This document shows, one piece after another, positions 580 to 53,533 of a DNA stretch of 64,000 nt. The notes beneath the pieces are model-generated. The model was not told where the DNA came from, made no database searches, and saw nothing but the letters and a program-made list of their open reading frames with translations. Positions within the stretch are counted from its first letter, which is position 1; each line of letters begins with the position of its first letter. Made by a program: the position numbers and the translations under genes. Source of the DNA: a virus. The stretch spans positions 64,001-128,000 of the IMG/VR virus record IMGVR_UViG_3300042389_001478; one strand, written 5' to 3'.

Positions 580-3500
580 ATGGCAAAAGGATTTAATTTA
601 ACAGCGGAAATTAATTTACGAGGACCATCTAATATTAGATCGGTTGTTGCCGATATTAAAAGACAGGTAGGGTCTGTTAGTGTTGATGTCAGTCCAACGC
701 TCAATAGGGCTTCTGTTAGAACTATTGCTAATGATATTAGGCGTCAGATAGGAAATTTATCAGCAGAAATTAATGTAAGAGCTAATGCTGGCTCAATTAG
801 AAACTTATCAAGAGATATTCGACAGAGACTGGGAACATTAACTGCTGATGTTCAAGTCAGAGCAGATGCCTCGTCAATTAGAAGATCTGTTGCTAATATA
901 AGATCTCAATTTAGGAATATTAGCACCAATGTCGCAGTATCTGCATCGCCATCATCTATTAGACAAGCATCGTCAGCAATTAGGAGACAGCTTGGAAATA
1001 TTAATGCAAATGTCAGGGTTAATGTTTCCGCAGGATCAGTAAGACAAGCAGCAGCCAATATTCGTAGACAACTAGGCTCTATTAACACCACAGTTAACGT
1101 TGGAATCAATGCAGCGTCATTACGAGGCATTGGGGCATATACAGCAAATCTTACAAGATTAAATGCAACTTTAGCTCAAACTACAATTACTGCTACTAAT
1201 GCTGCCGGAGCAATTGCAACTTTAACCGCGGCTATGGGCGCTGCTGGACGAGTAAATCTTGGTCAAATCAATGTTAATCTTGGTAATGCTGGTAATGCTG
1301 CTAGAAATACTGCTAATAATATTCAGTTAGCTGGTAATGAAATTGAAAACTTCGGTCGTCAAGCGGGCTTGGCTATAAGGCGTTTTGCTGCTTTTAGTGT
1401 TGTTACGGGTGTGGTCTTTGGTATTACTAATGCTTTTAAGAATGGCGTTAGTGCTTTTATTGAATATGATCAGCAGCTTACCAGAATTAGCCAAGTTACC
1501 GGAGATGCCAAAGAAAGTCTTGGTAAAATTAATAGTACAATTAGTGAGCTCTCAACAAGCTTAGGTGTTTCATCTAAAGAATTAGCAGCAACATCAGTAA
1601 CGTTAGCTCAGGCAGGTTTAACAGCACGAGACACCGAGACTGCATTAAAGGCATTGGCCTTAAGTGCATTGGCTCCGTCTTTCGATGACATGAATCAGAC
1701 GGTAGAAGGCTCTATCGCATTAATGAGACAGTTCGGCATTTCCAGCAAAGAACTAGAAGGATCATTAGGATCAATCAACGCTGTTGCTGCAAAGTTCGCT
1801 GTCGAAGCTAGCGATATTATTACTGCCATTCAACGTACCGGTGGTGTGTTTGCTGCTGCTGGTAAAGGAGTTAGTGAAGGCACTAATGCTTTAAATGAGT
1901 TCATTGCTGTATTCACTAGTATTAGAGCAACAACTCGTGAAAGCGCAGAAACCATTGCTACTGGCTTAAGAACAATTTTTACAAGAATTCAGAGAGCCGA
2001 TACTATCGAGGCCCTCAAAGAGTTCGGCGTTACATTAACAGACTTAGAGGGTAAGTTCGTTGGACCATATATTGCTGTTCAAAGATTAAGTGAAGGATTA
2101 TCAAAACTGGATCCTAGAGATTTGAGCTTCTCTAGAATTGTGGAAGAGCTTGGTGGATTCCGACAGATTGGCAAGGTTCTACCACTTATTCAACAGTTCG
2201 CCACCGCACAAGACGCTTTGAGGGTTGCCCAGCAAGGACAAGGATCATTATCGGCCGACGCAGCCAAAGGACAAATGGCATTAGCAATTCAAATAGCAAA
2301 AGTTAGAGAAGAATTTTTAGCATTAATTAGAAGTGTTGGAAATACTGATAGTTTTCAAAATATGGTTAAGGTTGGACTAGACTTGGCCAGTGCCTTAATA
2401 AAGGTAGCAGATGCTGCTAAAGGATTAATTCCATTAGTTGGATTATTTGCGGCGTTCAGGGGAGCTCAAGCTATTACTCAATTTGCTGGTGGTTTTGGAA
2501 GAGGTTTTAGAGGAGCACCAACACAAAGAGCCTCAGAAGGTGGCCCTATTAGACACTTTGCTTCTGGAGGCTATGTTCCTGGTTTTGGTAACGGAGACAC
2601 TGTTTCTGCAAAATTAACTCCTGGCGAGTTTGTTATGAGCAAACCAGCTGTACGGTCTATTGGAGTTGGTAATCTTAGTAGAATGAATAAAGGCGATAGA
2701 GCTAGCAAATTTGATAAGGGTGGTCCAGTAACAGTATCCGCCTTATTAACTAGATCTGGAGGACCGTCAATCAGAAATGCTATTAATACTACTAATTTAG
2801 AACCAGATGATACAGTATCGATAAATATTGTTCCTAAACAAGTACCACTAAACCAGACCGACTTTTTAAATATATGGTTACGAGGTAATTCTTCTGCTAA
2901 AAAAGGAACAGGAAAATTCAAAAATTATGCTGGAATTAATGTTAGTCAAGAGAATAGAGATAGATTAAAAAATTTAGCAGGAAAAAATACAAAACAGCAA
3001 CAAGAAATTAAACGTGGTTATGGGGCCGGTATTTCTGAACAAGTGAGTATGCTACAAAGCGCGGAAGGAAGATGGGGGTTAGCATATGAAGAATTTTTGA
3101 TTAATAAACTTCGAGCTAATTGGACCAAAGCTAGTTCTAAAAACAACTACCCAGTTGATCTTGTTCAAAAACTAACAAATAATTCTATAAAGCGTATTGG
3201 AGAGGTTAAATTTCGCACGACACCTACTGAAGATATAGATCTTATTAGTAAGTTATTAAGATATCGAATAGAAAGAGGATCTATTAACAGATACTTTAGA
3301 GAAAATGAAGAAATTCCCAAAGACTTGGATAAAAATATAGGTTCGTTAGATTATTTTTGGGCTGGAAACTATAAAAAACAATTCTATAAGTTTATAGAAG
3401 AGAGACAAAAAATACAGGCTCCTGGTTTTGTTCGTGCGGCAGCTGGTGGACAAATACAAAGATTCCCTAGGGGCGGAAATGTTCAAAAACTAGCTAATGT

Positions 3501-6500
3501 TGGAGTAACCAAGGAAAAGAAACAGACTAATATAAATGAAACTGCTGCACAAGCTCTTCTCGAACAAAATGCAGGTAAATCTCCTGTTATTAGAAGAATA
3601 TTAAGTAAACCAAAAGCTGGTAGAGATTTTGCACAAATACTTAAAAAACAAGGAGTGACTATACCACCATTTCCAAAATTTGTGGGATCTGGAATGGCTA
3701 ACGCGGTTTTTGATATCGGAAATAAGAAAATGTTAAAAGTTTCTCTCACGGGCTTTGGCGATAATATGATGGCAGGAAATTTCTTTGGAGAGAATGTTGC
3801 TGAAAAAATGGGTATGACAGGTAATTATCAATTACCGATGGGTGTTCCTGGAGTAGCTGGATATTCATCTCATATTGATGCGGGAGTCTTGTCGTCTGCT
3901 ATTCAAGACAAAGCTGTTATGAAAATAAAAGGAAGAAGTAAAAATAAAGATGCTAACGAGCTAATCAAGCGATTGCGTAAACAAGAAGGACTTACAGGGA
4001 TTGATCTTCATAACGACAATATAGGATATAGATATAATCCCAAAACTAAAAAACAAGAACCAGCAATTATAGATGGTTTAGTAGTTCATGATGATAAATT
4101 ACCTCCTGGATTTGATTTTTCGAATCGTTTTAAAATTGGTGGAGAAGTACAGAGATTCCCTATTGGTGGAGAAGTTAGAAGAACCAAAAAAGAACGATAC
4201 AAAAAAATATCAGTAGCAGATGCAGAAAAGCTATCAGCTTCTCAGATTATAACCGGCCTTACTACAGGACAATCCGCTCCAGCTAGAGTAGGGGGTATGG
4301 ATGTTGTAACTATGAGAAAGATTCTCGGCCAACGCAATAGAACACCAGATGATCAACGCAAGAGAGATGAAATTCTAAATGCTTATACTAGAAGAATAAA
4401 TGGAGAAGTAGATCAACGTCTTGGAGTTACTAAGCAGAGACAAACAGCAGGATTACTATTTGGTATTGCTGGTTTGTACGGGTCTCCATTTGCCCCAACC
4501 GATATGGTTGTTGGAGATAAAGGAGAACTTACAAAACCCACAACCGTTCAGGTAATGGGTGGTGTTCCTCGTAAAAAATTAATGGATAGAGCTAATCTAA
4601 GTATTAATGACCTAGACATTTATGGTAAAGATTTTAAAAAGTCTGTTAAAAAAGGAGCTAAAAGATTATTAGTATCAGATATTCTTAGCCAACTAGGTTT
4701 AGGCAAAGCTCTTTATGCTGACTTTGATCGAACATTAGTGTTTGGTGCTGATGATCTTCCAGATATCCAGTCTTTTAATGACAAGAGAAAAGTGGGCAGG
4801 CAATTATTATCAAAAAAAGCTAGACTGAGCGTTCTTGGTCAAAAATTAAGAGATTTATTAGTAGCTAAGCCACAGCTCACACCATCTGTAAAAATATTAA
4901 CAGCAAGACCACGCTCTACACTTGGTCTTTTACAAGCTTTTCTTAGACGACAAAATCTTAATATACCTTCTTCTCAATTTACTGGGGTCGGTGGTAATAA
5001 TTTAAACGAAGCAGCAATAGCAAAATTAAAAGCTGCAGAATTACCTTCTGGATCAGTTTTAGTTGATGATAATGCAAAAAATATAAGAGCAGCAGAGCTA
5101 AAATCTAAAGCACTAAAAGCTCAAGGCGAAGCTGGTATTACAACATTTAGATATAAGAGCGCTAGGAGCCCACTAGATAAGCCGGGCGAAGATACTGCTG
5201 CTGGTCTTGCGTTCCAAGAATCATTAAGAGGACTTCTTTCAGAAAAAAGAGCAGTGGCCGCATTTGCTGAAACAGGAGGGAAGAGCATAGATTTCCCGCT
5301 AGGATTAGGAAGACGAGCAGCATTATTCGGACTAAAACCAAATATACCCACAGATGCTAAAAGAACATTAACTGGTCCATCAACAGCAAAAGAGAATATT
5401 ACTAATTATTTGAAAGCTAGATCATATTCTGCTGGCGGAGATATTCAAAAGTTTCCACAAGGAGGAACACCATCGCCGGGTGGACATTCCTCAAATATTG
5501 TACCAGCATTAGTTAGCACTGGAGAAGCTTACTTTCCACCAGAAGAAGCAAAAAATATAGGCTTAGACAAATTAAGAAAAATGAATCAAGCAGATCGTAA
5601 TGGCATGAAATCCTTTGCTCGGGGTGGTGTTAGTGTTTTCAGAGGTCCGGGATCAGGAACTAGTGATAGCATAGGACCAATAGGTTTGCCAGTAGGAAGC
5701 TTTATCGTTCGAGCAGCTGCAACAAAAGCTTTGGGTCTTAGTTCGGGTGGATCTGTTGGTAATGTACAAAAATTTGCCGCAGGAGGAGCTGCTCAAAGAT
5801 TATTTGTTGGAGGATTATTAAATCCACCACCAGCAGCTAGGCCAGATCTTGGTGGTATGAATGATTCTGAAGCTCGAAGAGTTGTTGGAGTAGTTAATAG
5901 CGTTAATCAGCAACTAGGACAATTAGCAGGAGTATTAGAAGAGCTTGGTGTTGCATCAGGAGATACTGCAAGGTTAATGCAAAGAGGAAGTCAGGCTACT
6001 TATGCTCAAGCTATTCAAGCGACAGAAGCTGATATTAGACGAGCCAGAATAGCAGGAGCATCAGCTCAACAAATAGCAGCTGCAGAAAGTGTGCTACGGG
6101 ATATTAGACAACAAGCTGATAGAGATATCAGAGCAAGAAGAGCATCTGTAGATACTCCGGGCGGAGCTAGAGCTTCCTTGGGTAGTTTAGGTGGACAAGA
6201 TTTACAGAGAATAGATTCTAGAGCCGATCAGCTACGTCAACAAATGATGGAAACAGAAAGAAATCGACTACAGAACCAAACTGTAACTCGCGGAGGAAGA
6301 ACAACAGCAAGATATTCTAATGAACAAGTCGAAGAAAGACTACAAAGACGAGCAGGAAGATTTAATAGACAATCCTACGAACAAGCAACTACTCAAGTTA
6401 CCGGCGGACGAGTCGATCTTGGTGCTGTTGGTTTAACTGGAGATGATGCTCAAAGATATATCCAACAAAGTATGAGAGACCGTAATACTTTAGCTCAGAT

Positions 6501-9500
6501 GGATAGAGCATATATACCACGACGAGCCGCACAGATTAGACAACAATTAGAAGCAGAGCGTGGTGTCGGAGCAACAGCAAGAGAAAGAGCGGCATTAGCA
6601 CGACAAGCATTACGCATGGCTGAGCAAGAGGCAAGAGACAGAGCCAATACTGCACGAGCCGCTGCCAGAGCCGCTGGAGCAGCTGGCCCCGGAGGAGGCC
6701 CAGAAAGCGGTATGGCTAGAAGCATGGGCATGGCCTTTGGTCTACAGATGGTAGGCTCCCTACTTGCACAACAGATTAATCCAGAATCTAGCTCTTCAAA
6801 TGCTCAGATATCTGCTGGTTTACAAGGTGGAACAAACATGCTGGCTACTGGCACCATGATTGGTAGTGGTGTGATGGAAATGTTCCCAGCAATGACACGA
6901 TTACTAGGTCCGATAACGATTTTAACAACAGTCGCACTAGCTGCTGGTCAAGCTTTAATTGATGCTCGAAATGCCGCCATAGAATTTGAGAAAAAATTAG
7001 CTGACAAAAGAGTTCAAGATGCAATGGAGAGAGTTGGTCAAGGCTTTGATAAACTAAGTAAAAATATCAAAGATATTAAAATTCAAGATGATATTACTAA
7101 CAATTTAATTGAAGCTAGTAGAAATGTTAGAAAATCAGTAGAAGCAGATAAAACAACAGCCAAGGCTTTTTGGGCTAATATTACTGATGTTTTTACCTCC
7201 AACACATCATCAAACTTAGCTGAGGCTGCGCAAAATGTATATAACTCCAAGCCAGCTGCTGGCAGAACAGACGCTGATAGAAATGCCTTAGCTGCTGTCA
7301 CAATAAACACCCAAGCTGCTGCAGCTAGCAGGAGCAAGATTTTAGAAAAAGAGGGGGTGTCAGCGTATCTTAGTACTACTAGCATGGGACAATTTTTAAG
7401 TGGAGCTGGCTCACAATCATCTTCTAGAGCTGAAGAAAGAAGATCATCGCTCTCTCTGGGTATGATACCGGAAACAGCCAGAGAAGACTCTAAAAAATAT
7501 GTTGAAGTCGCACAAAGTATGCAAAGAATTATTGAAGATAAATTAAGAAGTGGCTTGAGTGTTAGAGAATTATTAACAGCACCAAAACATGAATTTGAAC
7601 AAATTGCTAGAACAATGGCCATGGCAGACCAAGCCACCCATGCTAATATATTAGCAATCCAACAAGACACTAATCTAACCACAGCAGAAAAAGAAGCTAA
7701 AATCAAAAATATTGCTACGCTTTATGCTGAAGACAAGATTCGCAAATCTGCTAAGTCCGTGGACACGGAAAAAGCGAGTAAAAACTTTGAGAAGAATATT
7801 AATAATATGAGCCGTAGTTTGGAAAGAATGTTCCAAAATATGGATCAAGCTATTGAGAGAACAAGCTTTAGTTTAAGACAAATGTCTCAAGATATGGATC
7901 TCATATCAGCATCTCTTGGTGGACAAGCTAAAACTGGTGATACATCTCTTAAGTCCATGAATATTTTACAAAATCCAAGAGCATATGGTGGACTAGAAAC
8001 CAATGCTGCTAGGGATCAAGCTTCTTCCTTCTTTACTGGGGAACGTAATTTAGTTAAGGGACTATTATCAGTTGGAGATAATTTAGAAACTAGCATAATG
8101 TCTAGTATTAATAAAACTCTTACTGATAATCCAGCAGCTAGCAATGAGCAAATTGGTATCAATATTGAAAAACAAGTTACTAAACAAATTGCTAAACTAC
8201 AACTGCCTCCTGATGTTGGGAACAAACTTGGAGAACAAGTTAAGACCGCGTTGGACGAAATGAGAAAACGCGGAGATGAGAATCTAAATTTTGATGATTT
8301 AATGGAAAAAATCCCAGGATTAAGCAAGGTTCTGGAGAGCGGCAAAAGAGCACAAGAATCTGCACTTAAAGCACTAGAACATTGGCAGAGTTCACTAAAT
8401 TCGTATTCAGAAAAAATTAATCAATTAATAGATCTACAAATCGATACCAATGAAAGACTACGAAGATCAAGTGAATTGGTGATTCGTGGCAATATGGAAG
8501 TATCTCGCGCCCTTGGTAAAGATGTTAGTGTTTCATCTGTTAGATCAGCAAGAAATGTTGGCATAGCTCAACAAACTGGTGGCTTAACGGATGCTGATGC
8601 TATAGCCAAAAACATAATGTCATTAGAAGGCCAACGACGATCACTAGAATCATCGGCTAATTCTGCTGGTAATAGAGGATTAGCTGGGGCTAATGATTTT
8701 GTTAAATTTAAGAGCGGACTATTAGACACTAATGTTGCATTAAGAGAAAATATTGCAGCATTAAAATCTTTAGCAGAAAATGGCGATGTTGCTTCAGCAG
8801 CATTAGGAAAAATACAAGAAGCCCAACAGAAACAAGCTAGCAAAGTTGGATTCATTGAAAAGCTAGTAACTAGCACACCAGAAGAAGTTAATTCTTTAGA
8901 ACGTGCTATGGCTAGATTACAAAATAATATAAATGGTCAACTAAATACTATCAACAACAGTGTTGGTGCACAAAAGGCATATAATGATGCTATAGCGCAA
9001 GGAGCCACAAATGCAGAGGCCATGAGCGCAGCACAAGTTGCTTTTGCTGGCGAAAGAAAAGAAACACTAGGCGCTCTAAATGATTTATTGCCATTTTTAA
9101 GTAATAATCAACAGGGCAATAATATTAAAGCTAATGTACTAGAGAGTATGGCTAGAGAGTCTGGTGTTGGTATTAATCCAATGATGCAAGAGGTGATTAA
9201 TTCTTTAAGAAATCCACAGGCCGACCCTCAAACTCAAGCTGCTATGCAGCAATATCAACAGGCAATTAGTGAACAAGCTAGAGCTAATACTTTACTAGCA
9301 CAACTTAATAGTACTTTGGCTAATGATATTGCTACCAAATCAGCAGCAGCATTGAGCCAAGCTTTAACTGGCGCCTCGATTAAATTTCAGAGCAGTCAAT
9401 TAGACGATATTGCTAAGAATGTTAGATCTATTTCATTAAGAGGTGGTGATCAGCCAGTACCAGCAGCTGGAAAAGCCAATGGTGGCATGATTTATGCTGC

Positions 9501-12500
9501 CGCTGGTACAATGGTTAATTTCCAGCCCAAAGGAACCGACACTGTACCAGCAATGCTTACTCCCGGCGAATTCGTGGTCAACAGAGCTGCTACATCTCGT
9601 AATCTTCCATTATTGCAAAGCATTAATAGTGGTGGCTATAGTAAGGGCGGCAGCGTTAATTATTATTCTTCTGGTGGATATGTTAGTAGCGTATTTAAGA
9701 GTGAGTATTTAGACTCCAAGAACTTAGAGAATAGCGAAAAGCAATATATTGATCCAGAAGATAAAATAATAAAAGATATTATTAGTGGAGACGATAAACC
9801 ATTTATGATTAGGTCTGGATGGAAAAATTTCACTAGACTACAATCACCAGCTAACCAATATCACAGTGCTCAATTTAAAAAGACTTATGTTGGTAGAGTC
9901 GGAGGTTATTTTGGGTTTGGTCTTGATGAAACAAACGATAAAATTCCATTTGAGACCAGTGGTAAATTAGTACCTGGGTCTGCTCCGATCATTGATATTA
10001 ACTCCATAGATGGTGAATATGTTTATAAAAACACACCACCTCCTAATTTATGGCCAGCTGGTAATAGAGAGCTAGGATACTTATTATCAGATAGAAAATT
10101 TAATACTAAAAATATTGCTAAGAATGATTTGTCTAAATATAGAGATATTATCAATGGGCTTATTAGTGTTGTTCCTCCTGGTAGAGTTTGGGGTACAGAT
10201 CCATCAAGCTTTGAATTTAGTTCTCCAGATGATCTTTCCGGCGGCCAGAGCGGCTTTCCATATAATCCTAATTTAAGCAGCGCAAAACCGGTAGGCTTGA
10301 TTTTATCTAGAGGAGCTACTGATATAGGACAGCAAGCCACAGAAAGCACAGATGGAATTCAGAAAATCTTTAATAACAGCAGAGCATTTACCGGACAATC
10401 AGAAGAAGCTTCAGATAGAGCTGGAAATACAACTAGAATATATGGAGATATACAAGGAACGGTCTCTGCTGGGAAACTAACCAACGCAGCAAAACTTGCT
10501 CAAAGAGGTTTTATTAACGACGTTCCAACAGATAATGACACATTTAAATGGATTACTGAAACCAAAAAAATTAGCGAACTAAGAGACACTCAAAAAGAAA
10601 ATCTATCTCTACTTAAAAATACCACCACAGATATTTTTGGTAATAAAATTAATTGGCTTAAAAACACTGAAAAAAATAATAAACTTATTTCTTTACAACA
10701 AAAACTACAAAAAATTTATGAGGGTGGATCATTAATAGAAGATCTTGATGTTTCAGAAAGAGAGTTGATAGATAATACTCAGCTAAGACTAGATGATGCA
10801 TCCGGTAAGTTTTCATTGTTATCTAAACAATTAGAACCCCAATTAGCTAAAAGAGTAGCAGAGCTATCGTCTAGACCAATAGATCAACAGCTTCCAAAAG
10901 ATAAAGAAAATGCTAGAATTGCAACACTAACAAGAATAGGTGGAGCAGCAGGCTGGGCAGACGGAGATCCATTCCCGATCAACTTTAGTGAAAACGGACT
11001 AACCAAACCAACAGTCTCATTTCCATGGATAGCTAATATTGAACCAGAATTTTTCTTACAAAATATTAAAGAACAACAAGAGCAACAAGCTAAAGACCGA
11101 GCATCTGGTAAAGACTATGGGTTTAATATTAGCTCACTAGGATTACAACCGTATGCTGCTAAATTACCGGCACCACTAGACAAAGTAAGCTTCAATTATA
11201 AGGCTGCTTATACCAAATATAGTGGTAGACTATTTGATTTAAGACAAAAAGAACTAGATAATACCAGACCATTAAATGACGCTTTTATTATTGACCCTAA
11301 GCACGATGATGCTCTCAATATATTTAAAAATGCTAATTTCCCAGACAAATCCTTCTTTACAGGATTTCCCGGACCATACCAACCACAAGATTTAGCCAAG
11401 AGAATAAGCGTTAAAGATCCTCAGTCCATTCTAGACTACATGCAAGCTTTACGCAATAATGATCCCAATGCCGATGCTTTAGCTGGAAAAATTAATGGGG
11501 TATCTTTAGCTTTGGGACCAGCCCTGCTCAAGGTTATGAATGATAAGCCATTATATTTACCTGACGACTTATATTATGGTATTGATAATACTTTTCAAAA
11601 TCTTGATATTAGTCCATTTGTAGTAGCATCAGCAAAAGATGCTGCCGGGCAACTTGGTCGTTTAGCCAAAGAAAAAAGCTCCCAGATCAATACCCCAGGA
11701 TCAAAAACTCAAAGTATAAGCGAAGCTGATCTTGGTCCAACAGTGCAAAGAATAGCACAAGCATCTTTAGGCATTTTTGGACGTAGACCAGGAATACCAT
11801 CCGGATATCTTTATAGTCAATTTGGAAGAGCATTATCTAATATTAGTGATCCAATCAAAGCTAAGAATACGGCTTCTGGTATCAGTGGAGTTTTTAGTAA
11901 TTTAGTCAAACAAATTCATGGCATGGCTCCCAGAAATTCAAGAGAATTTGCAGCACTAAGAGATTCCAATATTTTAGCAACAGGCGCCTCTGCTGTTTTT
12001 AACAAACTAGCTTCTGGTAGTACTAATTATATTAAATCATTTTTAGGTGGTGGATCTTCTATAGAAAATCTCTTTAGGTCATTAGGTTCTGGATCTTTCT
12101 TTAATGAGATGGGTAGTCAACAGTTTAGTGAAGATTTTACTAAACAGCTTGGGGCTGATCTTAAGGGAAGCAAATTAGCTAAAATTGGAGCTGATGGCTC
12201 TATCGATTTAACAGATATGAATGAGCAGGATGTTCCTAAGAATTACCAAGGATTAGTTGATCTTGCTATTAATCCTTATCATGAATTTGGAAATAGATCA
12301 GTTCGTCAGGGAATTTTCCAAAAATTAATGACAGACATTCCTAATTTTAGAGCTAATCATAATGTTACAGATCCAAAAACTGGCACTATTTTAGAAAAAC
12401 GACAAACCCAACTACCATTATTTGGGCCTGCTGCTCTTAAGATGATAATGACTAATTTGAATAATTTATCACAATGGTATGGTGGAAATGGTGCTTGGGC

Positions 12501-15500: not shown

Positions 15501-18500
15501 TGCAGAAAAATCAGGATCGATTAGAGCAACAGAATTAAATACTAGACTACAACAACAAATAGCTAATAATACAAAAAATACAGCCGATACTGTTCCAACT
15601 ATAGCAAAAATTACTAGTGAAACAGCAAATAAGCAAATACCGACATTATCTAATAAAACATCATCATTAGAACAAAATAATGCTAAGGCTTTTTCCAACA
15701 TAAATACAAAAGCTACAGATATTAATAAAATAACTTCAACTATTCCACAATTTGACAAAACAGCAAATGAAAAATTAGATGAATTATTAAGAAGAACTGA
15801 AGGGTTGCCAGAGACAGTTGCACAAATTGTTACTTTGATTATTGGGGATATACAACAGAGACAGCCTGGAGGTAATTTTGCAGGATTTGGGTTGAATCAA
15901 GGCCCTAATGCAATACAAGCAATAAATGATGCTATTAGAAATAGGTTTGATAATATTCTTAATGCTGCCGCTTTACAGATGGGCAGGGGCTTTAGTAGTG
16001 GAGGTATGGTCTATGCTTCAAATGGAATGATGATTCCTTATGAACCTAGAGGTACTGATACTGTTCCGGCGATGCTAACTCCGGGTGAGTTTGTGGTGAA
16101 CAGAGTTGCTACCCAAGCCAATTTACCTTTATTACAAGCTATTAATAAGAGTAAAGGTGGGAATATCAAAAAGCTTGCTGAGGGTGGAGTAGTTTATGCT
16201 GCTACTGGCGGAACAATGCCAACTAAACCAGACGGTTCTGCTGATACTAATTTTGATGCTCGCAAAGCTCAACGAAAAGCATCTTTAGAGAGACAGATTC
16301 GAACACAGGAAGAAAAAGAATTTAAGAAATTAGGTATCTTATACAATGATACCACAGACAAAGAAGATATCATACAAGCTCTTAAAAAACAAACTCAGCC
16401 TTATCCTTATCCTTTAAATATTGATTATTATCTAAGACAATTTAGTAGGGATAAAGCATTTGACATAGACCTAAAAAGATTTCCAAGAATTAGCGAAGCG
16501 GCAAAATCAATCTTAGCCAAACAAGAACAACCAAAAGCTAATCCTTTTGATATGGGTCAGCAACCAGCAGCAACTCCACAATCACTCTCAAGAGGTGGAG
16601 TAGTTTATGCTTCTGGTGGCGGAGAGATGACAAAAATTCCAGAGCCACCAATAGCTATGCCATTCGGATTTGCTCCACAAAAGGGATTTGCTGTTCCTTT
16701 GGATAAAACTAAGGCCATACAAGCACATCAACAATCAGAAAAATACCCTGATCCTTTTACTCCAGAAGCTGATAGGGCCTGGAGACAATTTGACTTGAGT
16801 CCAGTAGAAAGTATGGCGGATGATGCTCATGAATTTTTACAAGAAAAATTAGGAGGAAACAAACAAATTCCCCTTAATGGTCCACCCATGCCATTTGGTG
16901 TCGGTCCTAGAGCTAGGCATATGGATAACACTGTTGCTGGACAACTTCAAGGATTGTATTATTCGTTAATACCTGATAATACCAAAGGTGGTCAGGGTTT
17001 AGAAAATTATTTAGACCAATATAAAAATCATTTTGCTCCAAACGCACCATATGGGGCTCAGCCGATCTTACCAAATAAAGATTCGTTGATGCCTCAAATG
17101 AAAGCTAAGGGTGGAGTAGTTTATGCTCAAGAAGGATTTGATCCATCAAGACCATTAAATCCTATGATGAATCGTCAAGGAAAGGGTTCAGCTTCCACAT
17201 TAACCTCATCTCCAATTAGTAATTTTAATAATGAGAAGTTAGCTGAAGAAGGTAAAGCTTTTATGTACGGAGCTGCTAAGTCCGTACTTCCAGGTTTAGC
17301 TGGTTTGGGTGCTGGACTTTTAGGACTACCCACCACGGGTCCTGGTGGATTTGCTATTGGCTTAGGAGCAGGGACCGCAGTATATCAAGCTCAAGAAAAT
17401 TATTTGAATGCTTTTGCTCCAGAAACAAATAGACAGATGAAAGATATCACCGAGGAGCACTGGCAGGCTTCATTATTGGGATCTATAGCTAGTGGTTTTG
17501 GTGTTGATAAGGCGGGTCGTAAGCTACTCTCTCCTTTTATGAAAAATACTCTCAGAATGCCCGCCACACTTCCTAATAATAATGCTTCTGTAAGACCAGA
17601 TATTAAGAGTGCTAGTCAAGAAGCTATGGAGGAATTTTCTTTAAGAAGTAGACCAGCAGCTAGCGCCCCATTAGATGTACCAAAAGCTGATAAAGCTTTA
17701 CCGCTTCTTCGTAGTCTAGAAGAAAAGGGTGTTATAAAAACTACTCAATCATCATCAACATCTAAATTTAACAGTGATAACAGACGAGACCTATATCAGA
17801 TTGATCAAATTTTATATCACGGCACAGGACATACTATAGATGATATAGATCCATCCAAAGGCGGAGGTATATTAGGCGGTGGTTTCTATACTGGATTTGA
17901 AGGTCACGAAGGAATCGCTGCAAGATTTGCAGCAATGGGTAAAGCAAATAAGCATGTGTATCCAGTAAGAGTCAGTGGTGGTATAGGTGATTTTCCTGAG
18001 GCTACAGAAACTCTTGGCGGTAACTCTAAAATTTTATCAGTCATAGAAAAATTATTTACTGAACAGAACTTATCTAGACAAACTCGTCAGTTCTCAGGCA
18101 AATGGGGGAAAACAGGTCCTATTTATGACAACGTAGATTTAAATCTGAAAGACATGACATTCAAAGACGTTGTTGATTTGCTTAAGAATAGATATTCTGA
18201 AACCATAAAGAAAACTCTAGAGCAAGAAAATGGTATTTCTTTATCAAAAATATCGCCTCAAGAAATTGCTACAAGAGCAGATAAATTAGGTGAAGAACAG
18301 GTAAGACAACTATTGGTTAAAGCTGGTATACCAGGAGCCAAAGATACAACAGGAAAATTATCGGGTACTGGCGAACCTATGGTCTCCATATATGATCAAA
18401 GCAGGCTAAGCAAAGAAGGAAAACCTTTTGTTCCAAATAGTTTGAAACCCCAGATGAAAGCCAATGGTGGTGTAATTTATGCTCAAGATGGTATGAGAAT

Positions 18501-21295: not shown

Positions 21296-24200
21296 ATGAA
21301 TGAAACAATTTCTGGTACATTGCTTATTGGCTCCGGACTCACTCCAGACATCAGACTATCTGAAACATCTGGAATAGCCACAAGCTTTAATAATAATAAG
21401 AAAAATATTGATTTTAGTATATCAGGAACAGGAAATAATGGCCTAATTTATTTTGATGCTTCTACTGGTCGTTTAGGAGTAGGCACCGGATTACCAGATG
21501 CTGTTCTTCATATTGTTGCTCCGTGCGCCAAAGATGGACTTATTGTTGAGAGTGTTACAAATTGCCCCACTGGCGTAACCCTACTATTAGTACACAACCC
21601 ACAAACTGCTCCACAAAGCGGTAGTTATCCAGCTATTATTAATTTAGCCGGAAGAGACACCAACTATGAAGAAATAGCTTATGGCCAGATAATGTCCCGC
21701 ATACTAGATCCAATTACTGGATTTACTAGTGGCGAACTAATTTTCACAGTTGATGAAACTGGAGTTAATAAACCAATTTTTGTTGGTAATCTACAAAGCA
21801 TAGTTCTTGGCGGAAGAAATCAAATATCTGGATCTAACTATGAAGTAATTGGAAGTACAAACTCAATCACTGGAGTTGGCTTTACTAATATAGGATCTTA
21901 TAATAGTGGATTGTCTACTAGTGGTATTTTAATTGGTAATTTAAATTATGTTAACGGTATTAAAACTTTAGCATTAATTAATAGTGCTAGTATAGTGGGC
22001 AATAACAACATTGGAATGGGTGATCAGATAAAAATTTCTGGGTTGTCTAATGTATTGGTCGGCAATAATAATAGCTTGTCTGGATCACAGAACGTGCTAT
22101 TAGGAGGAAATAACGATTTATTAGCAAGCTACTCAGTAGGCTTGGCTCAATATTCCGTATCTTCTGGAATTTCTGGCATAGCTCTTGGTTCATATATTAA
22201 TAATACTGGTGACTATAATATTTACATAGGTAATCTTAATAGCTTATCGGGTAATAACAATAGTATAGTAGGTTCGTACGTAAGCCTCACCGGAACCAAC
22301 ACTGTTGTTTATGGAAGTTCTGATAATATTTCTGGTAATAGTTTAATAGTCATTGGATCTAATCAGTCAGTGATTAATGTTAATAGTGGTATTTTTATTG
22401 GAAATAATATAACCAGTGAAGATTCATATCGAAGTGTTATTGTTGGATTAGGCAATGCTATTCAAAGCGGTTTGCAAGATAGTATTCTTGTTGGTATTAA
22501 TAACAATCTGTCCAATGGAAATCCAAGCAGCCTGCTTTTGGTAGGACAAGCTAACGTTACTAAAGATATTACAGGATCATTGGTTGTTGGCAATACTAAT
22601 AATTTAAGTGGAACAGTATCTAATAACTTAGTATTGGGTAGTATCAATGCTGTTCCGTCCACAAGCAACAACAACCTAGTGCTTGGAGTACTAAATAACC
22701 AAACTGGGGTTTATATCGATTCAGCTGGTTCTATATATGGAACTCCCAGAAGAACTAATGGCTCAGTAAATAATTCCATAGTTGCTGGTGTCCATAACAT
22801 TATTTCTAATGGTAATGCCGATATTCTTTTAGGTAATAAAAATTCGGTATCAGGATCAAATGCAAATATCTTAGGGTCATACAATAATCTTAAAAATTCT
22901 TCTAACACATATAATGTTGGTAATTCTAACTTTATTGTTGGAGATAAGGTTGGAACACTAGGAAGTAAAATATCTGTAATAGGTCAAGAGTCTGTAGTAT
23001 TTAATACTGCAGATCGTAAAATGGATGTTTTTGGTAGTGGTAATATCGTTATTGGTCATAACGCAGCCGTATCAAGCGGTATTATAGTCGGCACATCAAA
23101 CAAAGCCCATGGAACTAATAATATTATTTATGGTAAAAATAATACAGTTGGTTCCATACGCCACCAATTTACTACGAATAGCCCATTTGCTAATAGTGTT
23201 ACTATTGGTTCGCTGAACGTTGCTAACAAATACACTATAGGAGATACGGTACTAATTTATGTTCAAAATCCTCCTTCTATAACTAATACATTCGTTCGAG
23301 AAATTCAGGACATTGTTGAAGATATAGATACAACGACTATTACGTTCACTACTTCTATTAGTATGGATAGTAGTAATGGCTATTATTCTATTAATCAGGC
23401 TTTCGATGATAATAATTCTCCATCACCTTCCATAAGCGGATTAATTATGCCATACCAGCAAGGTGGTGGCATTGGTGGTCCAGAAACAAATCCCACCTAT
23501 GGTTCTGATAATATCATCGTTGGATCTAATAATAACTATATTTTTAGTAGCGGCGTTGTTATTGGAAATAATAATACTGTTTCTGGGGTTAAAAATGTTG
23601 TTATCGGATATGGCATGAGTGGGGTAGCCAATAATACATTATATGTGGGAACTAATAATAACAATAAAATTATTTTAGACAACGATAAAACAGTATTTAA
23701 CTCAGGTTCAGTACAAGATAATTTCATTATTAAATCTAGTAGTGATAATACCTCTGTAGTTAATATGGATTTAAATAGTAATTATTTTGGTATTAATACC
23801 GACAACCCCACGGCTGCACTCTCGGTCAGTGGACTAACGAGCACATCCACCGTAAGAATAGGTTTTTCTGCACCAGATCAATATGTTTTAACTACAAACG
23901 TCAATGGCTATGGCACATGGCAGCTTCCGGTCAGAATATCTGGAACCGATAATGGATTAATGTATAGAGTAAATAATAAGGTTGCTAGTGGTATTACTGA
24001 AGTTCAGTATGATCCAACAACATCTACAATGGGCTTTAATCTTGATGGGGCCAATGGTTTTTATATCACTTCATCTGGACTATTAGTCAATGACGAAGGT
24101 AATACTTATGGCATTAGGGTACGAGGAAGCGGAGGATCAGATTTCGCCAGAACCTTGCTTCAAACAAATTTTGGTAGAAATAGAATTGACTTTTTTAATA

Positions 24201-25648
24201 TAAGTGGCAATTCTGGTAATTTTAATAATTTCTCTGTTGGTAGTGGAATGATTTTGCCAGTTAGCTTAACTGGTACATTTTTATATGTTAATAATTCTGG
24301 TAATCTAACAAGCTTTGGCTCTAGGGCTTATAGTATACTATTTTCTAATGCTAATTCATGGGCTACTGGTAACACTAGCTATAGATGGATTGATAATCAA
24401 TCTACATTAGTGATGGGGTCTACCGGCGTTGTGTCCTATGATGTTTTAGCTACTAGTACTAATGACACAAGATACAACATATTATTAAGCTCCAATAAAG
24501 ACATAGATACCGTATTTAATAATTTGGGTTTGGGTAATAAATTTTCTGTCATCAATTCTGGACAATTAAACACCAGACGTGGATTACACATCAATCCCGC
24601 TAGCGGACAGGTTGCGATCAACGTTATTCCTGATACTTATGCCGGAATAGCAAGTCAATCGCATTTGTATGTTGAGGGTAAAACACACACCCAGTCATTA
24701 AGAATAGGGAATAATAGTATTTCTGGACTATATCTCAGAGTAGATAATAGTGGCAATGTTTTTTCTAGCCTATTAGATCTCAAGACCCAATTTAGTGGAT
24801 TGTGGCCGTTTTCTGTTACAACAACCTCTTTGGGCGGCAGTGATACTTTTAGGGTTGATCTTGGGCTATCCAATCAAGATAGGTCAAATTTTAGTATGGT
24901 CGGAGTGTCTGGTGATGGCCGGTTCTTAGTTTTTGACTCAACTAAGTGGGACTTATCTAATAGTTTGAAAGTGCCTCAATCAACATGGGTTACTAACAAC
25001 ACTGGTCCTGTTCTCAGGACTCTCAGAGGTATTGAATTTGGATACAGGCCCAAAATTAATTACACATACCACAGCCACGTTTTTGCATCAAGTTCTTTCT
25101 TAGATTCATCATCTTTGTATGATGGATCATCTCAGTTCTCCCAATATTACCTAAGATCCCGCACAGTAGGCAACGACATAGCTGAACTTACTACAGACTG
25201 GGGTAAAAATAGCAGTAATGACGTAAGCCAATATAATACCATTAGTTTAAAAAACACAAATGGTTATGATTATGATAATGTATGGAACTATAAGATTTTT
25301 GTATCAGTAATTTGGCAAGATGGTACCACCACACAAACCGTTACTGGTCCAAAATCTGCTGCTGGCATGACTATTGAAGGATGTGTTTTTAGATCAGCAG
25401 ATGGAGGAATATTCACTAAACTAGGCAAGGAGAATATTAATGTGTATGCTACTGGTATTGGAGCAGTTGGGATGCCTGCTGGTATGGGTATTGCAACATA
25501 CATAGACAATGATGCTAATCAAACATTAATGCCTCGATTAGCTATTCAAGCCACAGGAGTTGCTGGAAAAACGACATTATGGAGCGCCTCTGCTCAGATT
25601 AATCAATTAAATCACCCTGCTGGATCTAATTTATTCGGAAATACTTAG
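21296..25648 (+). CDS. Tail fibre/spike-like protein with long Gly/Asn/Ser beta-roll (YadA-head-like) repeats, 1,450 aa
   Basis: Many G-x-x-N-x-[IV] / [IV]-[IV]-G-N-N-N units (about 21.8-23.65 kb); fibre motifs GRLGVGTGLPDAVLHI and FGINTDNPTAALSV; location in the tail module. Confidence 0.7.
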   Translation: MNETISGTLLIGSGLTPDIRLSETSGIATSFNNNKKNIDFSISGTGNNGLIYFDASTGRLGVGTGLPDAVLHIVAPCAKDGLIVESVTNCPTGVTLLLVHNPQTAPQSGSYPAIINLAGRDTNYEEIAYGQIMSRILDPITGFTSGELIFTVDETGVNKPIFVGNLQSIVLGGRNQISGSNYEVIGSTNSITGVGFTNIGSYNSGLSTSGILIGNLNYVNGIKTLALINSASIVGNNNIGMGDQIKISGLSNVLVGNNNSLSGSQNVLLGGNNDLLASYSVGLAQYSVSSGISGIALGSYINNTGDYNIYIGNLNSLSGNNNSIVGSYVSLTGTNTVVYGSSDNISGNSLIVIGSNQSVINVNSGIFIGNNITSEDSYRSVIVGLGNAIQSGLQDSILVGINNNLSNGNPSSLLLVGQANVTKDITGSLVVGNTNNLSGTVSNNLVLGSINAVPSTSNNNLVLGVLNNQTGVYIDSAGSIYGTPRRTNGSVNNSIVAGVHNIISNGNADILLGNKNSVSGSNANILGSYNNLKNSSNTYNVGNSNFIVGDKVGTLGSKISVIGQESVVFNTADRKMDVFGSGNIVIGHNAAVSSGIIVGTSNKAHGTNNIIYGKNNTVGSIRHQFTTNSPFANSVTIGSLNVANKYTIGDTVLIYVQNPPSITNTFVREIQDIVEDIDTTTITFTTSISMDSSNGYYSINQAFDDNNSPSPSISGLIMPYQQGGGIGGPETNPTYGSDNIIVGSNNNYIFSSGVVIGNNNTVSGVKNVVIGYGMSGVANNTLYVGTNNNNKIILDNDKTVFNSGSVQDNFIIKSSSDNTSVVNMDLNSNYFGINTDNPTAALSVSGLTSTSTVRIGFSAPDQYVLTTNVNGYGTWQLPVRISGTDNGLMYRVNNKVASGITEVQYDPTTSTMGFNLDGANGFYITSSGLLVNDEGNTYGIRVRGSGGSDFARTLLQTNFGRNRIDFFNISGNSGNFNNFSVGSGMILPVSLTGTFLYVNNSGNLTSFGSRAYSILFSNANSWATGNTSYRWIDNQSTLVMGSTGVVSYDVLATSTNDTRYNILLSSNKDIDTVFNNLGLGNKFSVINSGQLNTRRGLHINPASGQVAINVIPDTYAGIASQSHLYVEGKTHTQSLRIGNNSISGLYLRVDNSGNVFSSLLDLKTQFSGLWPFSVTTTSLGGSDTFRVDLGLSNQDRSNFSMVGVSGDGRFLVFDSTKWDLSNSLKVPQSTWVTNNTGPVLRTLRGIEFGYRPKINYTYHSHVFASSSFLDSSSLYDGSSQFSQYYLRSRTVGNDIAELTTDWGKNSSNDVSQYNTISLKNTNGYDYDNVWNYKIFVSVIWQDGTTTQTVTGPKSAAGMTIEGCVFRSADGGIFTKLGKENINVYATGIGAVGMPAGMGIATYIDNDANQTLMPRLAIQATGVAGKTTLWSASAQINQLNHPAGSNLFGNT

Positions 25649-25673
25649 GACTTTTTAATTTAGGAAATTATTT

Positions 25674-27263
25674 ATGGCAAATGGAGCTTATATAAAATAC
25701 GGAAACTTTAGTTTTCTTGCTAATAGTGGATATCCAATTCCATCAATAAGCATATCTCAAGAATACCAAAGAGATGGAGCTGGCCGCCAGATAGGAGCTA
25801 CTGTTTCTATTGCTTTAGAAGGAAAGATTTATAGTGGTAGTGGAGATAAAGGTTTTTCTCATTTACTTACTAAAGAAAGCGGTTTAAGACAAGCTTTTAG
25901 TTATGATGGTAATAACTTTGTTGTTGGGTGTAGTGATGGAACTCAAACCACCTTTAGTGGTATAAAAGTTTCTCGATACAATGCTAGTAAAACCGAAAAT
26001 AATTGGACAACCACTATAGACTATAGTATTGATTTACAATCAGAAGTAGCAAATACTGGTAGCGGTATTTTCAACGTTACTAGCACTCAAGATGATTGGA
26101 GCATAGAAACGATTGATGAATTTTCATATTCACGATCTCCAGTAAGCATGAGCCTTTTGGGTTTTGGATCTAATTTTCAGTTTCCACAAGGAAAAAATTA
26201 TCCTTTTTATAGAATCAGTCGCACAATAGGAGCAGTTGGTAAGTTTATACCAACAAGCGGCTCTGGTGGCAACGTATCTCTTACTGGTATCAATACCGCA
26301 GTCTCTAACGCTAAAAACTGGGTTAATTATCATCTTCCACTAAATCCAACCTATTCTGGTATTATTAAAAGTTTATCTTTGTATAATTTTGTTAGAAATG
26401 TCAATAGTAGTGAAATTGAAGGCTCTTATAGAATAACAGATAATTGGATAGCTATTCCTAGTGGGTTAAGTGGGCTATACACCGAAAGCTTTAATATTGA
26501 AAGCTCATTAGACTCTTCATTAATGAGAACCGTAACCCTCAATGGTACTGTGAAAGGATTAGAGCTATTTAATAGTGGTAATTATAATAATTCATCACTA
26601 GATAATTTATCTAATAATATTAAATTAACAAGTAATGGTTCTACAAAATTTGATAACGCCATTAGCGGATACTCCTCTGTTAAAAACTTGCTATATGGTA
26701 GAGCACAGACTTTTATGGTTAGCGGCAGTGCTGCGACGGCAACCTTTTATGGTGGACTCGGAAGTGTTGTCGCCGGACAATTTGCTAATAGAACCGAAAG
26801 TCCTTTGAACCCTATTCCAGTAAGCGCTACCGAAGGGTTTAATCCAGCAGAAGGAAGCATAACATATAGTTGGTCTTTTAATAATCGTCCTATGAACATT
26901 ATTAGCGGAGCTATTAGCGAAACATTAACCGTTGATGATACATTTCCAACACAAGTAGTAGGAAGTATTTATGTGCTTGGTAGAAGATTAGGACCAGTTT
27001 TACAGGATATCGGCACAGTAACTTCTTATAGTAGATCGGTTACGATGGAAGTGGTTTTCCCCAAACCATCTAGTCTTAGAAATATAACATTTCCTGGAGA
27101 TGCTTATAGATCTATAACAGGAATAATCGATTCGTTAGATCCTAAAAATCTATATGCTGACGGAATACGATCATTTGTTAAGCAAAATAGTGAAAACTGG
27201 AATGCAACCGAAGGAAGATTTACCAAGACTAAAGCGTGGGAATATACAAGATGCATCTACTAA
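25674..27263 (+). CDS. Putative tail/baseplate structural protein, 529 aa
   Basis: Beta-rich S/T/G/N composition, tight coupling within the tail operon, repeated strand patterns (YSIDL, YRISRTI, YRITDNW, ITYSWSF). No specific family recognised. Confidence 0.5.
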   Translation: MANGAYIKYGNFSFLANSGYPIPSISISQEYQRDGAGRQIGATVSIALEGKIYSGSGDKGFSHLLTKESGLRQAFSYDGNNFVVGCSDGTQTTFSGIKVSRYNASKTENNWTTTIDYSIDLQSEVANTGSGIFNVTSTQDDWSIETIDEFSYSRSPVSMSLLGFGSNFQFPQGKNYPFYRISRTIGAVGKFIPTSGSGGNVSLTGINTAVSNAKNWVNYHLPLNPTYSGIIKSLSLYNFVRNVNSSEIEGSYRITDNWIAIPSGLSGLYTESFNIESSLDSSLMRTVTLNGTVKGLELFNSGNYNNSSLDNLSNNIKLTSNGSTKFDNAISGYSSVKNLLYGRAQTFMVSGSAATATFYGGLGSVVAGQFANRTESPLNPIPVSATEGFNPAEGSITYSWSFNNRPMNIISGAISETLTVDDTFPTQVVGSIYVLGRRLGPVLQDIGTVTSYSRSVTMEVVFPKPSSLRNITFPGDAYRSITGIIDSLDPKNLYADGIRSFVKQNSENWNATEGRFTKTKAWEYTRCIY

Positions 27264-27279
27264 TTAGCTAGAGGAAATA

Positions 27280-32856: not shown

Positions 32857-32858
32857 TT

Positions 32859-50985: not shown

Positions 50986-51013
50986 ATTATAGCCATGACG
51001 CGACGAGCGTCAA
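50986..51013 (-). promoter_or_regulatory. Sigma70-type promoter for ssb
   Basis: TTGACG (51013-51008, overlapping the dnaE-C stop) - 16 nt - TATAAT (50991-50986). Confidence 0.7.
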
Positions 51014-52638: not shown

Positions 52639-53329
52639 GGCTAGCGGTGAAAGAGTCTTTGAATTTTATTTTATTGCTTAGATTACGATGGAGCTTAAGG
52701 AATCGAATTAGGATATCGGCGCAGTCCTTAACGTCTTTTAAGGCATCGTGTGCTCCAACCTTAGAGATTCCAAAATAGTCTCTTAATGAATCTAGGGTAT
52801 AACTCTTTAAGTCTCCATTATTTTCAAACCAATAAAAAATTAAATTCATGATATCAACAACATCTCTAGGATAAAAGATATCGGTCTTTGATTCTTTATT
52901 TACGTTACCATATTTATTGCTTAGTCTATCAACTATTGGTAGATCAAAACGATAAATATTATAGCCAGCAGCTATTGGAGCACTAAATTGACTTTTTTTA
53001 GATGATCTGCTGTGATACATTTCTAAATAGTTGGTAAACATCTTCCAAGATTGCTCTTGTGAAGGATACTGTTTCCAGTCTTTTAGAATGTCATCCTTAG
53101 AACATCCCTTAACTTTAGCATGAAAGTCCAGAATATCTGTTGTATATTCATAATTTTCGTCTTTTGCCAGAACATCTGGCTTAAAGAAAATATTAAATTC
53201 AGACTTTGGTACTATTTCGAGTTTAATAGGATCAATAATAACCGAGGCTATCTGAACCGGACTGCAAATCCTGGGATCAGATCCGTCTGTTTCAAAATCA
53301 AAAACACAGATTTTATTATAGTTAATCAT
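52631..53329 (-). CDS. DEDDh 3'-5' exonuclease (Pol III epsilon/DnaQ-like)
   Basis: VFDFETDG (ExoI), AGYNIYRFDLP (ExoII), AHDALKDV (ExoIII). Confidence 0.92.
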   Translation of the reverse strand: MINYNKICVFDFETDGSDPRICSPVQIASVIIDPIKLEIVPKSEFNIFFKPDVLAKDENYEYTTDILDFHAKVKGCSKDDILKDWKQYPSQEQSWKMFTNYLEMYHSRSSKKSQFSAPIAAGYNIYRFDLPIVDRLSNKYGNVNKESKTDIFYPRDVVDIMNLIFYWFENNGDLKSYTLDSLRDYFGISKVGAHDALKDVKDCADILIRFLKLHRNLSNKIKFKDSFTASHA

Positions 53330-53333
53330 TAGT

Positions 53334-53531
53334 TTAGTCGTTTACTTCTACTTCTATTAGTGGTAAAACTTGGATACGTTGAGCTTGATCCGACAGCAAT
53401 GCTGCATTAATAGCCTTACAGCAACTAACTCTTTCTTCTGTCAGCTTTATATATTCATTAACCGCGCCCTGGTCATTTTTTAGTTTAAATGTCTGACCGA
53501 TAGCAACTTCCATAAACTTTTTAATCGCCAT
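53334..53531 (-). CDS. Small hypothetical protein (65 aa) between dnaE-N and the exonuclease
   Basis: GGAG RBS; fills the gap exactly; beta-rich with an RVSCC motif. Confidence 0.75.
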   Translation of the reverse strand: MAIKKFMEVAIGQTFKLKNDQGAVNEYIKLTEERVSCCKAINAALLSDQAQRIQVLPLIEVEVND

Positions 53532-53533
53532 AT

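Follow-up and report, generated by a model that had tools for sequence, protein, structure and literature searches.

A kinase-like cassette in a giant tape-measure protein

We analyzed a stretch of 64,000 nucleotides (hereafter, the window) that corresponds to bases 64,001-128,000 of the IMG/VR virus record IMGVR_UViG_3300042389_001478, a genome of 192,497 bp that is rated complete by CheckV. From position 580 to 21279 on the plus strand, the window holds a single open reading frame (ORF) for a giant protein of 6,899 amino acids that contains no cysteine at all, and an N-proximal segment of this protein carries an ordered set of protein kinase motifs. As argued below, we hold with moderate confidence that in this segment a phage tape-measure protein (TMP) harbours a minimal phosphotransferase domain of the protein-kinase-like type. 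The Pfam family PF10145 (PhageMin_Tail) matches the carrier at amino acids 320-512 (E 1e-24), its first ~640 residues match five PHROG TMP families, and the genes upstream are tail-fibre and baseplate-like genes; together, these matches and surroundings identify the carrier as a TMP, which makes more specific the "tail protein" named in a preliminary description of this DNA. When its N-terminal core was used as a tblastn query, annotated TMPs of Rhodococcus phages were found. No tail-sheath family was found in the 192-kb genome, and the phage tail is probably of the long, non-contractile type. The TMP is built of modules parted by short xFxxGG linkers, and a longer joint, GTDTVPA, is present five times farther along the protein, the joint types being xFxxGG and GTDTVPAMLTPGEFVVN; a hydrophobic stretch lies near amino acid 2108.

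The kinase-like cassette occupies positions 3460-4143 on the plus strand, as do all features of the TMP given below, and corresponds to amino acids 961-1188, which we number 1-228. It reaches from an RFPRGG linker (3460-3477) to an FKIGG linker (4129-4143), the latter being the first half of a double linker, FKIGG-EVQ-RFPIGG (4129-4170); both boundaries were read directly from the sequence. Within these bounds follow a glycine-rich loop, G-S-G (amino acids 1036-1038; 3685-3693), a lysine in the sequence M-L-K-V at the position of the beta3 lysine of kinases (K1053, domain K93; 3736-3738), a catalytic loop, D-L-H-N-D-N, running from D1142 to N1147 (domain D182 and N187; 4003-4020), and a putative metal-binding aspartate (D1165, domain D205; codon 4072-4074) that opens the D-G of I-I-D-G (D-G at 4072-4077) and is the equivalent of the DFG motif. 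The Phe of DFG is absent, and members of the cassette family read D-G-L/M or D-A-L instead. Two further motifs lie between the lysine and the catalytic loop, namely a family-specific GNYQLP (amino acids 1081-1086; 3820-3837) and a Q-D-K (amino acids 1109-1111; 3904-3912). In other words, the motif set that the preliminary description had reported is present in the correct order, in frame and between the FPRGG and FKIGG linkers, and the extent of some 135 residues given there agrees with the 131 residues counted from G1036 to G1166.

The spacings between the motifs are 15, 89 and 23 residues, which is comparable to those in the gp0.7 kinase of phage T7 (hereafter, T7K). The ordered set occurs only once in the 6,899-residue protein, and it arose in 2 of 2,000 residue shuffles. 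After the metal-binding aspartate, only ~23 residues remain before the cassette ends, and therefore the helices of the C-lobe and the activation segment are absent.

Conservation among related tape-measure proteins

The cassette matched nothing in Pfam, in PHROGs or among PDB sequences, even at lax thresholds; four family members were left unmatched by Pkinase (PF00069), RIO1, APH and PF18762 when hmmscan was run with E values up to 10, and a 4-sequence profile of the family recovered no kinase family from the sequence libraries. An exhaustive phmmer search of 1.84 billion cluster representatives returned just five matches, which are giant, cysteine-free, TMP-like proteins of 4,808, 6,201 and 5,503 amino acids and two fragments. 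We further built a DNA pattern on the family motif GNYQLPxGxxxVxGY, which retrieved additional copies (loci L002-L006) in two IMG/VR contigs of 197 kb and 84.7 kb and in metagenome contigs. The same pattern had zero matches in 185,579 species genomes, so these genomes give no clue to a prophage or a host. Nothing was matched by megablast and tblastn searches of the cassette against 50,697 phage records, and no related locus was confirmed in viral contigs, whether sought with a single sequence or with an alignment. A profile search found no stand-alone homologue of near-cassette length, and a search for longer homologues, covering 439-2,000 amino acids, returned just two fragments that were already known.

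The relatives are collinear giant TMPs, with N-terminal cores that are 60-64% identical, and what surrounds them in the genome was read from the loci L002, L003 and L005. One of them, P0002, contains two kinase-like cassettes in tandem (amino acids ~843-1072 and ~1064-1300), joined by an FKIGG-EVQ-RFxIGG linker. Since the boundaries of this repeat fall exactly at the linker, the linker-bounded segment appears to be a real unit of duplication. The second copy lacks the family motifs GNYQLP and QDK and retains the catalytic residues. Across nine cassette copies at 37-63% identity, this diverged tandem paralogue included, the residues G78, K93, D182, N187 and D205 are invariant, as is the glutamine of Q-D-K (Q149, 9/9), and GNYQLP is invariant in eight copies and reads GQWGLP in the diverged paralogue. 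The preliminary description had given the catalytic loop as DLHxxN. This reading is correct for the window, where the codon starting at 4003 encodes the catalytic aspartate, D1142; the histidine, however, is not a family feature, as other copies read DIRDDN, DAGAVN, DADGSN or DAHGSN, and the conserved element is thus D-x4-N. Between two of the retrieved loci (L002 and L005), the ratio of nonsynonymous to synonymous substitutions (dN/dS) is 0.11 at a dS of 0.47, where synonymous divergence is unsaturated. These sequence comparisons strongly indicate that the cassette is under purifying selection.

Predicted fold of the cassette

We built an AlphaFold2 model of the cassette from an alignment of the nine sequences, which gave a mean predicted local distance difference test (pLDDT) score of 76.6 and a predicted template modelling (pTM) score of 0.74. 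The model is a globular alpha/beta domain. It begins with an N-terminal helical extension (domain residues 27-63; 3538-3648), made up of helices 27-36, 42-48 and 53-63 with a pLDDT of ~94, that packs on the N-lobe. These three helices are followed by strands 73-77, 81-87 and 90-96, a helix at 101-109, and strands 135-141 and 144-150, and after the hinge come a helix at 161-176, a strand at 178-181 that leads into D182, and strands 188-193 and 198-203, the latter leading directly into D205. [quoted passage not shown] The family-specific GNYQLP is found in the loop before strand 4. Taken together, the predicted anatomy consists of the N-terminal helical extension, a five-stranded N-lobe, an alphaC-like helix, a hinge, alphaE, D-x4-N and the metal-binding aspartate.

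When this model was compared to the PDB using Foldseek, the top matches were all protein kinases. The best match in VIA-align was Rio1 of A. fulgidus (Z 9.6, root-mean-square deviation (rmsd) 3.7 Å, 168 residues aligned), and the highest-ranked structural neighbours also include ULK4, IRE1 and OspG. The preliminary description had named a comparison with protein-kinase-like (PKL) folds as one test on which its proposal could fail. In such a comparison, carried out independently of Foldseek against 48,161 representative PDB chains, the predicted fold turned out to be kinase-like, with all of the top 50 chains having kinase-like folds; OspG scored Z 7.5 there (136 of 169 residues), NleH1 Z 6.8, the aminoglycoside phosphotransferase 4pdy Z 7.4 and YihE Z 6.9. 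Fold matches in BFVD comprise phage kinases, including ones of the T7 type, and proteins of 170-210 residues. With its N-lobe sheet, alphaC-like helix, hinge, alphaE, catalytic loop and beta7-beta8 hairpin, the cassette as modelled belongs to the PKL fold. We considered membership of the canonical Pkinase, RIO or APH families of Pfam as well, and rejected it, as no profile matched and, in the case of the eukaryotic-type kinases, the C-lobe helices alphaF-alphaI and the activation segment are absent.

The length of the TMP and the silence of all sequence profiles for this segment would also suit a trivial explanation, in which the segment serves as a spacer or ruler and the motifs are an accident of the great length and low complexity of a structural protein. 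We rejected this explanation, which we consider extremely improbable, on the evidence of conservation, fold and selection: the motif order is rare among shuffled sequences, the motif residues show no variation between nine copies with identities down to ~37%, which is weightier than the shuffling result, the dN/dS is low, and a confident globular alpha/beta model finds kinases exclusively among its fold matches. A coiled-coil ruler segment was rejected for the same reason that the model is globular alpha/beta and not a coiled coil.

Neighbouring cassettes and other features of the window

Two cassettes downstream of the kinase-like cassette, after ~180 residues, lies a second candidate enzyme, a HAD phosphatase cassette (amino acids ~1368-1528; 4681-5163). 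Its motifs can be read directly as DFDRT (4720-4734), TAR (4900-4908, within ILTARP at 4894-4911) and DD (5065-5070, within VDDNAK at 5062-5079), and HAD motifs I-IV (D193-x-D195-x-T197, T253, K296 and D308-D309, along with T-A-R-P) are invariant in three lineages. In the AlphaFold2 model, the pLDDT is 80-94 over the HAD part, whose Foldseek matches are all HAD phosphatases: e(P4), the Legionella effector Lem4, PSPH and Pnkp1. With motifs I-IV placed on a Rossmann-like fold, the modelled cassette fits the HAD phosphatase superfamily. The ~180-residue segment in between is modelled at a pLDDT of only ~30, and the block of kinase, ~180-residue segment and HAD is collinear in three lineages.

Other cassettes show further enzyme-like signatures. 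Just upstream of the kinase-like cassette, a Y-P-V-D-L-V ... G-E-V-K-F (amino acids 857-879; 3148-3216) resembles the signature of PD-(D/E)xK nucleases; a Pfam search with amino acids 720-960 gave no match. Far downstream in the TMP, YHGTGH ... GGGFYTG (amino acids 5746-5772; 17815-17895) resembles an ADP-ribosyltransferase cassette of the H-Y type, is preceded by a glycine-zipper hydrophobic stretch and has no Pfam match. Among the relatives, the contig IMGVR_UViG_3300014720_002243 (L003, positions 9099-10313, minus strand) encodes the kinase cassette, then a Walker-A sequence GSGKS, then a HIGH-type nucleotidyltransferase signature, TRGH ... ISATKVRD, and this P-loop and nucleotidyltransferase pair hints, from its motifs, at a NadR-like kinase/adenylyltransferase arrangement and hence at NAD-related cargo. 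In the two fragments of a relative (P0004 and P0005), a metallopeptidase-like HELTH (HExxH) motif precedes the kinase cassette and an R...S-T-S...E-x-E-like ADP-ribosyltransferase pattern follows it; no HExxH motif was seen in the 6,899-residue TMP of the window.

The main rival to a protein kinase would couple the cassette to the HAD phosphatase. In this reading, the cassette has a kinase-like fold but phosphorylates small molecules, nucleotides or sugars, as do kinases of the APH, choline-kinase, Kdo or WaaP type, and the two enzymes would act jointly on a metabolite or signalling nucleotide, for instance in nucleotide- or NAD-related counter-defence or in modifying the envelope during entry. 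The collinearity of kinase, ~180-residue segment and HAD in three lineages would fit such a coupling, as would the presence of the NMN/5'-nucleotidase e(P4) among the best HAD fold matches and the NadR-like P-loop and HIGH-type motif behind the kinase cassette of L003. The D-x-H-x-x-N form of the catalytic loop, which is found in the window and three relatives, resembles an APH/choline-kinase-type motif, and 4pdy and YihE are both in the fold list. Against this, the top structural neighbours are protein kinases and phage protein kinases, the layout is like that of T7K, which is a protein kinase, and the large helical C-lobe that usually provides the substrate pocket of small-molecule kinases is missing here; moreover, HAD domains can be protein phosphatases, and the effector HAD of Lem4 is also among the top matches. 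We therefore hold a small-molecule kinase to be quite unlikely and prefer a protein kinase.

The lack of cysteine is shared by the TMP and all five relatives (P0002-P0006; 4,808, 6,201, 5,503, 799 and 679 amino acids), while the other proteins of the window contain 0.2-3% cysteine. This absence suggests that disulfides are selected against in a protein whose storage or translocation takes place in an unfolded state, and a cysteine-free TMP would be compatible with unfolded travel through an oxidising compartment. Downstream of the TMP gene and on the same strand, four consecutive very large ORFs of 1,450, 529, 1,858 and 2,760 amino acids occupy positions 21296-41141 (+); they have no significant match in Pfam or PHROGs, with one sub-threshold Pfam hit, and the 2,760-residue ORF has an unusually high cysteine content of 2.8%. 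Elsewhere in the window (51010-55408, minus strand), the gene for a DNA polymerase III alpha-like protein is in two pieces, ORFs of 624 and 542 amino acids that match consecutive halves of phrog_405, and a 232-residue RNase_T/DnaQ-type exonuclease ORF (52631-53329) lies between them. As a pointer to host or taxon, the DNA polymerase yielded only matches to diverse phages at ~33% identity.

A possible role during infection

We infer catalysis, a protein substrate, delivery to the cytoplasm, the timing and an anti-defence role from the results above and from known systems; delivery and action at time zero in particular are proposed by analogy with the TMP gp96 of phage P23-45 (see below) and from general knowledge of TMP ejection. 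In this proposal, the tail tube would hold the cysteine-free TMP in an extended and metastable form until infection, when the TMP would be ejected into the cell envelope and precede the DNA. Its N-proximal cargo, comprising the kinase and the HAD phosphatase, would leave last, next to the DNA, reach the cytoplasm and refold there. Drawing on the ATP of the host, the kinase could then phosphorylate host proteins ahead of all phage gene expression, probably with low sequence specificity given that it has no C-lobe, and the outcome would be that host functions are reprogrammed or a host defence is disabled, much as T7K disarms defences. Spelled out in full, the TMP would be a cysteine-free delivery train, its promiscuous, T7K-like kinase would phosphorylate defence proteins and nucleic-acid-binding proteins of the host prior to transcription, and the HAD phosphatase would limit or redirect this burst. 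We offer this full scenario as a tentative possibility.

Several points weigh against a kinase that acts in this way. Every sequence profile, be it from Pfam, PHROGs or the PDB, fails to recognise the cassette. The AlphaFold2 model stands on a thin alignment of nine sequences, with three of the five models agreeing (pLDDT 75-77) and the other two having a pLDDT of ~40, and the Z-scores of 7-9.6 are just moderately above the background that the tool states for best matches. Within the active site, the residue two positions after the catalytic aspartate is variable across copies. The glutamate before strand 2 is found in six of the nine copies and is replaced by alanine in the copy of the window, and an acidic residue in the alphaC-like helix (alignment position 106/107) is found in eight of the nine copies, where the window reads G-N. 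A clade-specific aspartate at the start of this helix, D101, may substitute for the missing acidic residue in the window's copy, and due to the absence of that residue the classical Lys-Glu pair is not established. As for delivery, a folded domain of ~25 kDa in at least three copies is too big for the lumen of the tail tube, and the model therefore requires unfolded storage and later refolding. The periplasm holds no ATP.

Some of the same points also speak for a reading in which the kinase fold does not transfer phosphate to host targets at all. The cassette would then be a pseudokinase, a nucleotide-binding scaffold or an enzyme of other chemistry, such as AMPylation, or its kinase activity would be confined to the cell that produces the virions or to the TMP, where an autophosphorylation might, for example, govern how the tail is assembled or how the TMP is processed or ejected. 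In the window's copy, both the acidic alphaC residue and the glutamate ahead of strand 2 are missing, the D+2 residue varies, and a substrate would have no C-lobe to bind to; a TMP-intrinsic role in particular would fit the finding that the cassette is always embedded in a TMP, with no near-length homologue found. However, the five residues for ATP, Mg and phosphotransfer are invariant even in the diverged paralogue, which is unusual for pseudokinases, and the purifying selection is strong (dN/dS 0.11). The adjoining cassettes are, furthermore, enzymes typical of injected effector arrays, and the stripped-down layout of T7K is highly active on many proteins (PMC13645617). On these grounds, we think it unlikely that host targets are not phosphorylated, and we retain a minimal protein-kinase-like phosphotransferase as the best explanation for the cassette.

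Comparison with known kinases and enzyme-bearing tape-measure proteins

It was predicted in 2017 that injected polyvalent proteins contain kinases, and TMPs with fused enzymes are known. What is specific here is a very rare family, orphan in sequence and close to a minimal kinase core, with a conserved N-proximal place in the TMP itself, a conserved kinase/~180-residue/HAD block, a tandem duplication at linkers and a total avoidance of cysteine. The family is tiny, numbering about 8 sequences in a total of some 15 billion proteins, and with its near-minimal core the compact cassette lends itself to asking how much of the kinase fold catalysis can do without. In addition, the xFxxGG boundaries of the cassettes and the absence of cysteine provide handles on the question of how folded enzymes travel through a tail tube.

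One close comparison in terms of layout is with T7K (PF27024), a kinase that experiments have shown to be hyperactive and, recently, to put many bacterial defence systems out of action at the same time (PMC13645617). Its kinase domain comprises residues 1-242, and its DFG-equivalent aspartate, D213, stands in a DPV motif (PMC13645617). The preliminary description had likened the cassette to T7 gp0.7, and with regard to layout this likeness is close: the motifs lie at 74-76, 93, 195-200 and 213 of 242 residues in T7K and at 76-78, 93, 182-187 and 205 of 228 in the cassette, both have ~70 residues before the glycine-rich loop and ~25 after the metal-binding aspartate, a D-x-H-x-x-N catalytic loop occurs in T7K and in the window's cassette, and the Phe of DFG is missing from both (DPV in T7K, DGL in the cassette). 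T7-type kinases among the BFVD fold matches point the same way. The profile evidence is less clear. In hhalign, all four cassette motifs align with those of T7K, with K93, D195-x4-N200 and D213 among the paired residues; with the single T7K sequence as the partner the probability is 3.5%, and with a 7-sequence T7K alignment it is a borderline 24-51% (E 1.6e-4 to 8e-4), the match being strongest at the catalytic loop and the metal-binding aspartate. A PHROG search that included kinase families gave no match to the cassette. Neighbours in protein-language-model space (Atlas), which we treat as leads only, are viral clusters with lengths of 163-235 residues, a few of which carry PF27024 on 11% of their members. 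The two also differ, as the DPV motif is not found in the cassette and GNYQLP and QDK are particular to the cassette family. T7K is a free-standing early product, made after infection and fused to a DNA-binding shut-off domain, its family usually having such a domain at the C-terminus, whereas the cassette is internal to a virion tail protein. T7K must first be expressed; if our reading is true, a TMP-borne kinase would act prior to transcription, leaving defences no time to sense the incoming DNA, and would represent a virion-borne, pre-expression form of anti-defence by phosphorylation.

A similar economy was described by Iyer et al. (2017), who predicted kinases without a C-lobe in the injected polyvalent proteins of phages and conjugative elements (PMC5512222). 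Like the cassette, this Kinase-PolyVal family (PF18762) has lost the whole C-terminal subdomain and retained the active-site residues, and sits in huge multi-enzyme proteins that are thought to be injected with the DNA, with a cassette-like shuffling among relatives. An invariant glutamine in the last N-lobe strand (Q149 here) and a glutamate before strand 2, which occurs in six of the nine copies, may be features in common with Kinase-PolyVal as well, yet the window's copy has alanine in place of the glutamate. The carrier differs too, being a TMP here, a setting that PMC5512222 does not mention, and no self-processing metallopeptidase was seen in this TMP, which has no HExxH. The PF18762 profile (cut-off 27 bits) matched neither the module of the window, nor three relatives, nor the six-frame translation of the 192-kb genome, with E values up to 10; one Atlas neighbour cluster has PF18762 on 80% of its members (score 0.94), again as a lead only. 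Considering that the layout is shared with T7K and PF18762 and that the profile evidence is either absent or borderline, we filed the cassette as a separate, new sequence family of the minimal phage-kinase kind and not as a demonstrated member of either family.

Structurally, the cassette resembles Rio1 (PDB 1zp9/1zth) most, with Z-scores of 9.4-9.6, an rmsd of 3.7-4.0 Å and 168 of 228 residues aligned, starting from model residue 26 and thus with the N-terminal helical extension included. In contrast, no Pfam RIO1 or PDB sequence match was found, and RIO biology concerns ribosome maturation. OspG and NleH1 offer a functional parallel, as these small, type III-secreted kinases are delivered unfolded via a narrow conduit, as we propose for the cassette, although their targets are those of eukaryotic hosts. 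RIO, OspG and NleH all keep more C-lobe helices than the cassette does.

Cell-wall hydrolases are among the published enzymes carried by TMPs. For the proposed delivery, the experimental precedent is gp96 of Thermus phage P23-45, a TMP of 5,002 amino acids; a virion RNA polymerase makes up its N-terminal part and transcribes the pre-early genes (PMC10770324, Chaban et al. 2024). That this polymerase is active implies that N-proximal TMP cargo reaches the site of DNA entry in active form. Both proteins are giant TMPs, that of the window probably from a long-tailed phage as well, with an enzyme in the N-proximal part that is active on entry, before phage gene expression, in the case of gp96 and would be so in the case of the cassette. 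The cargo differs, being an RNA polymerase and not a kinase, and gp96 has a metallopeptidase domain, in contrast to the TMP of the window with its lack of HExxH. While gp96 carries one fused enzyme, the TMP of the window consists of a long train of linker-delimited cassettes, in which the kinase-like cassette would lengthen the list of TMP-carried enzymes beside the P23-45 RNA polymerase (PMC10770324).

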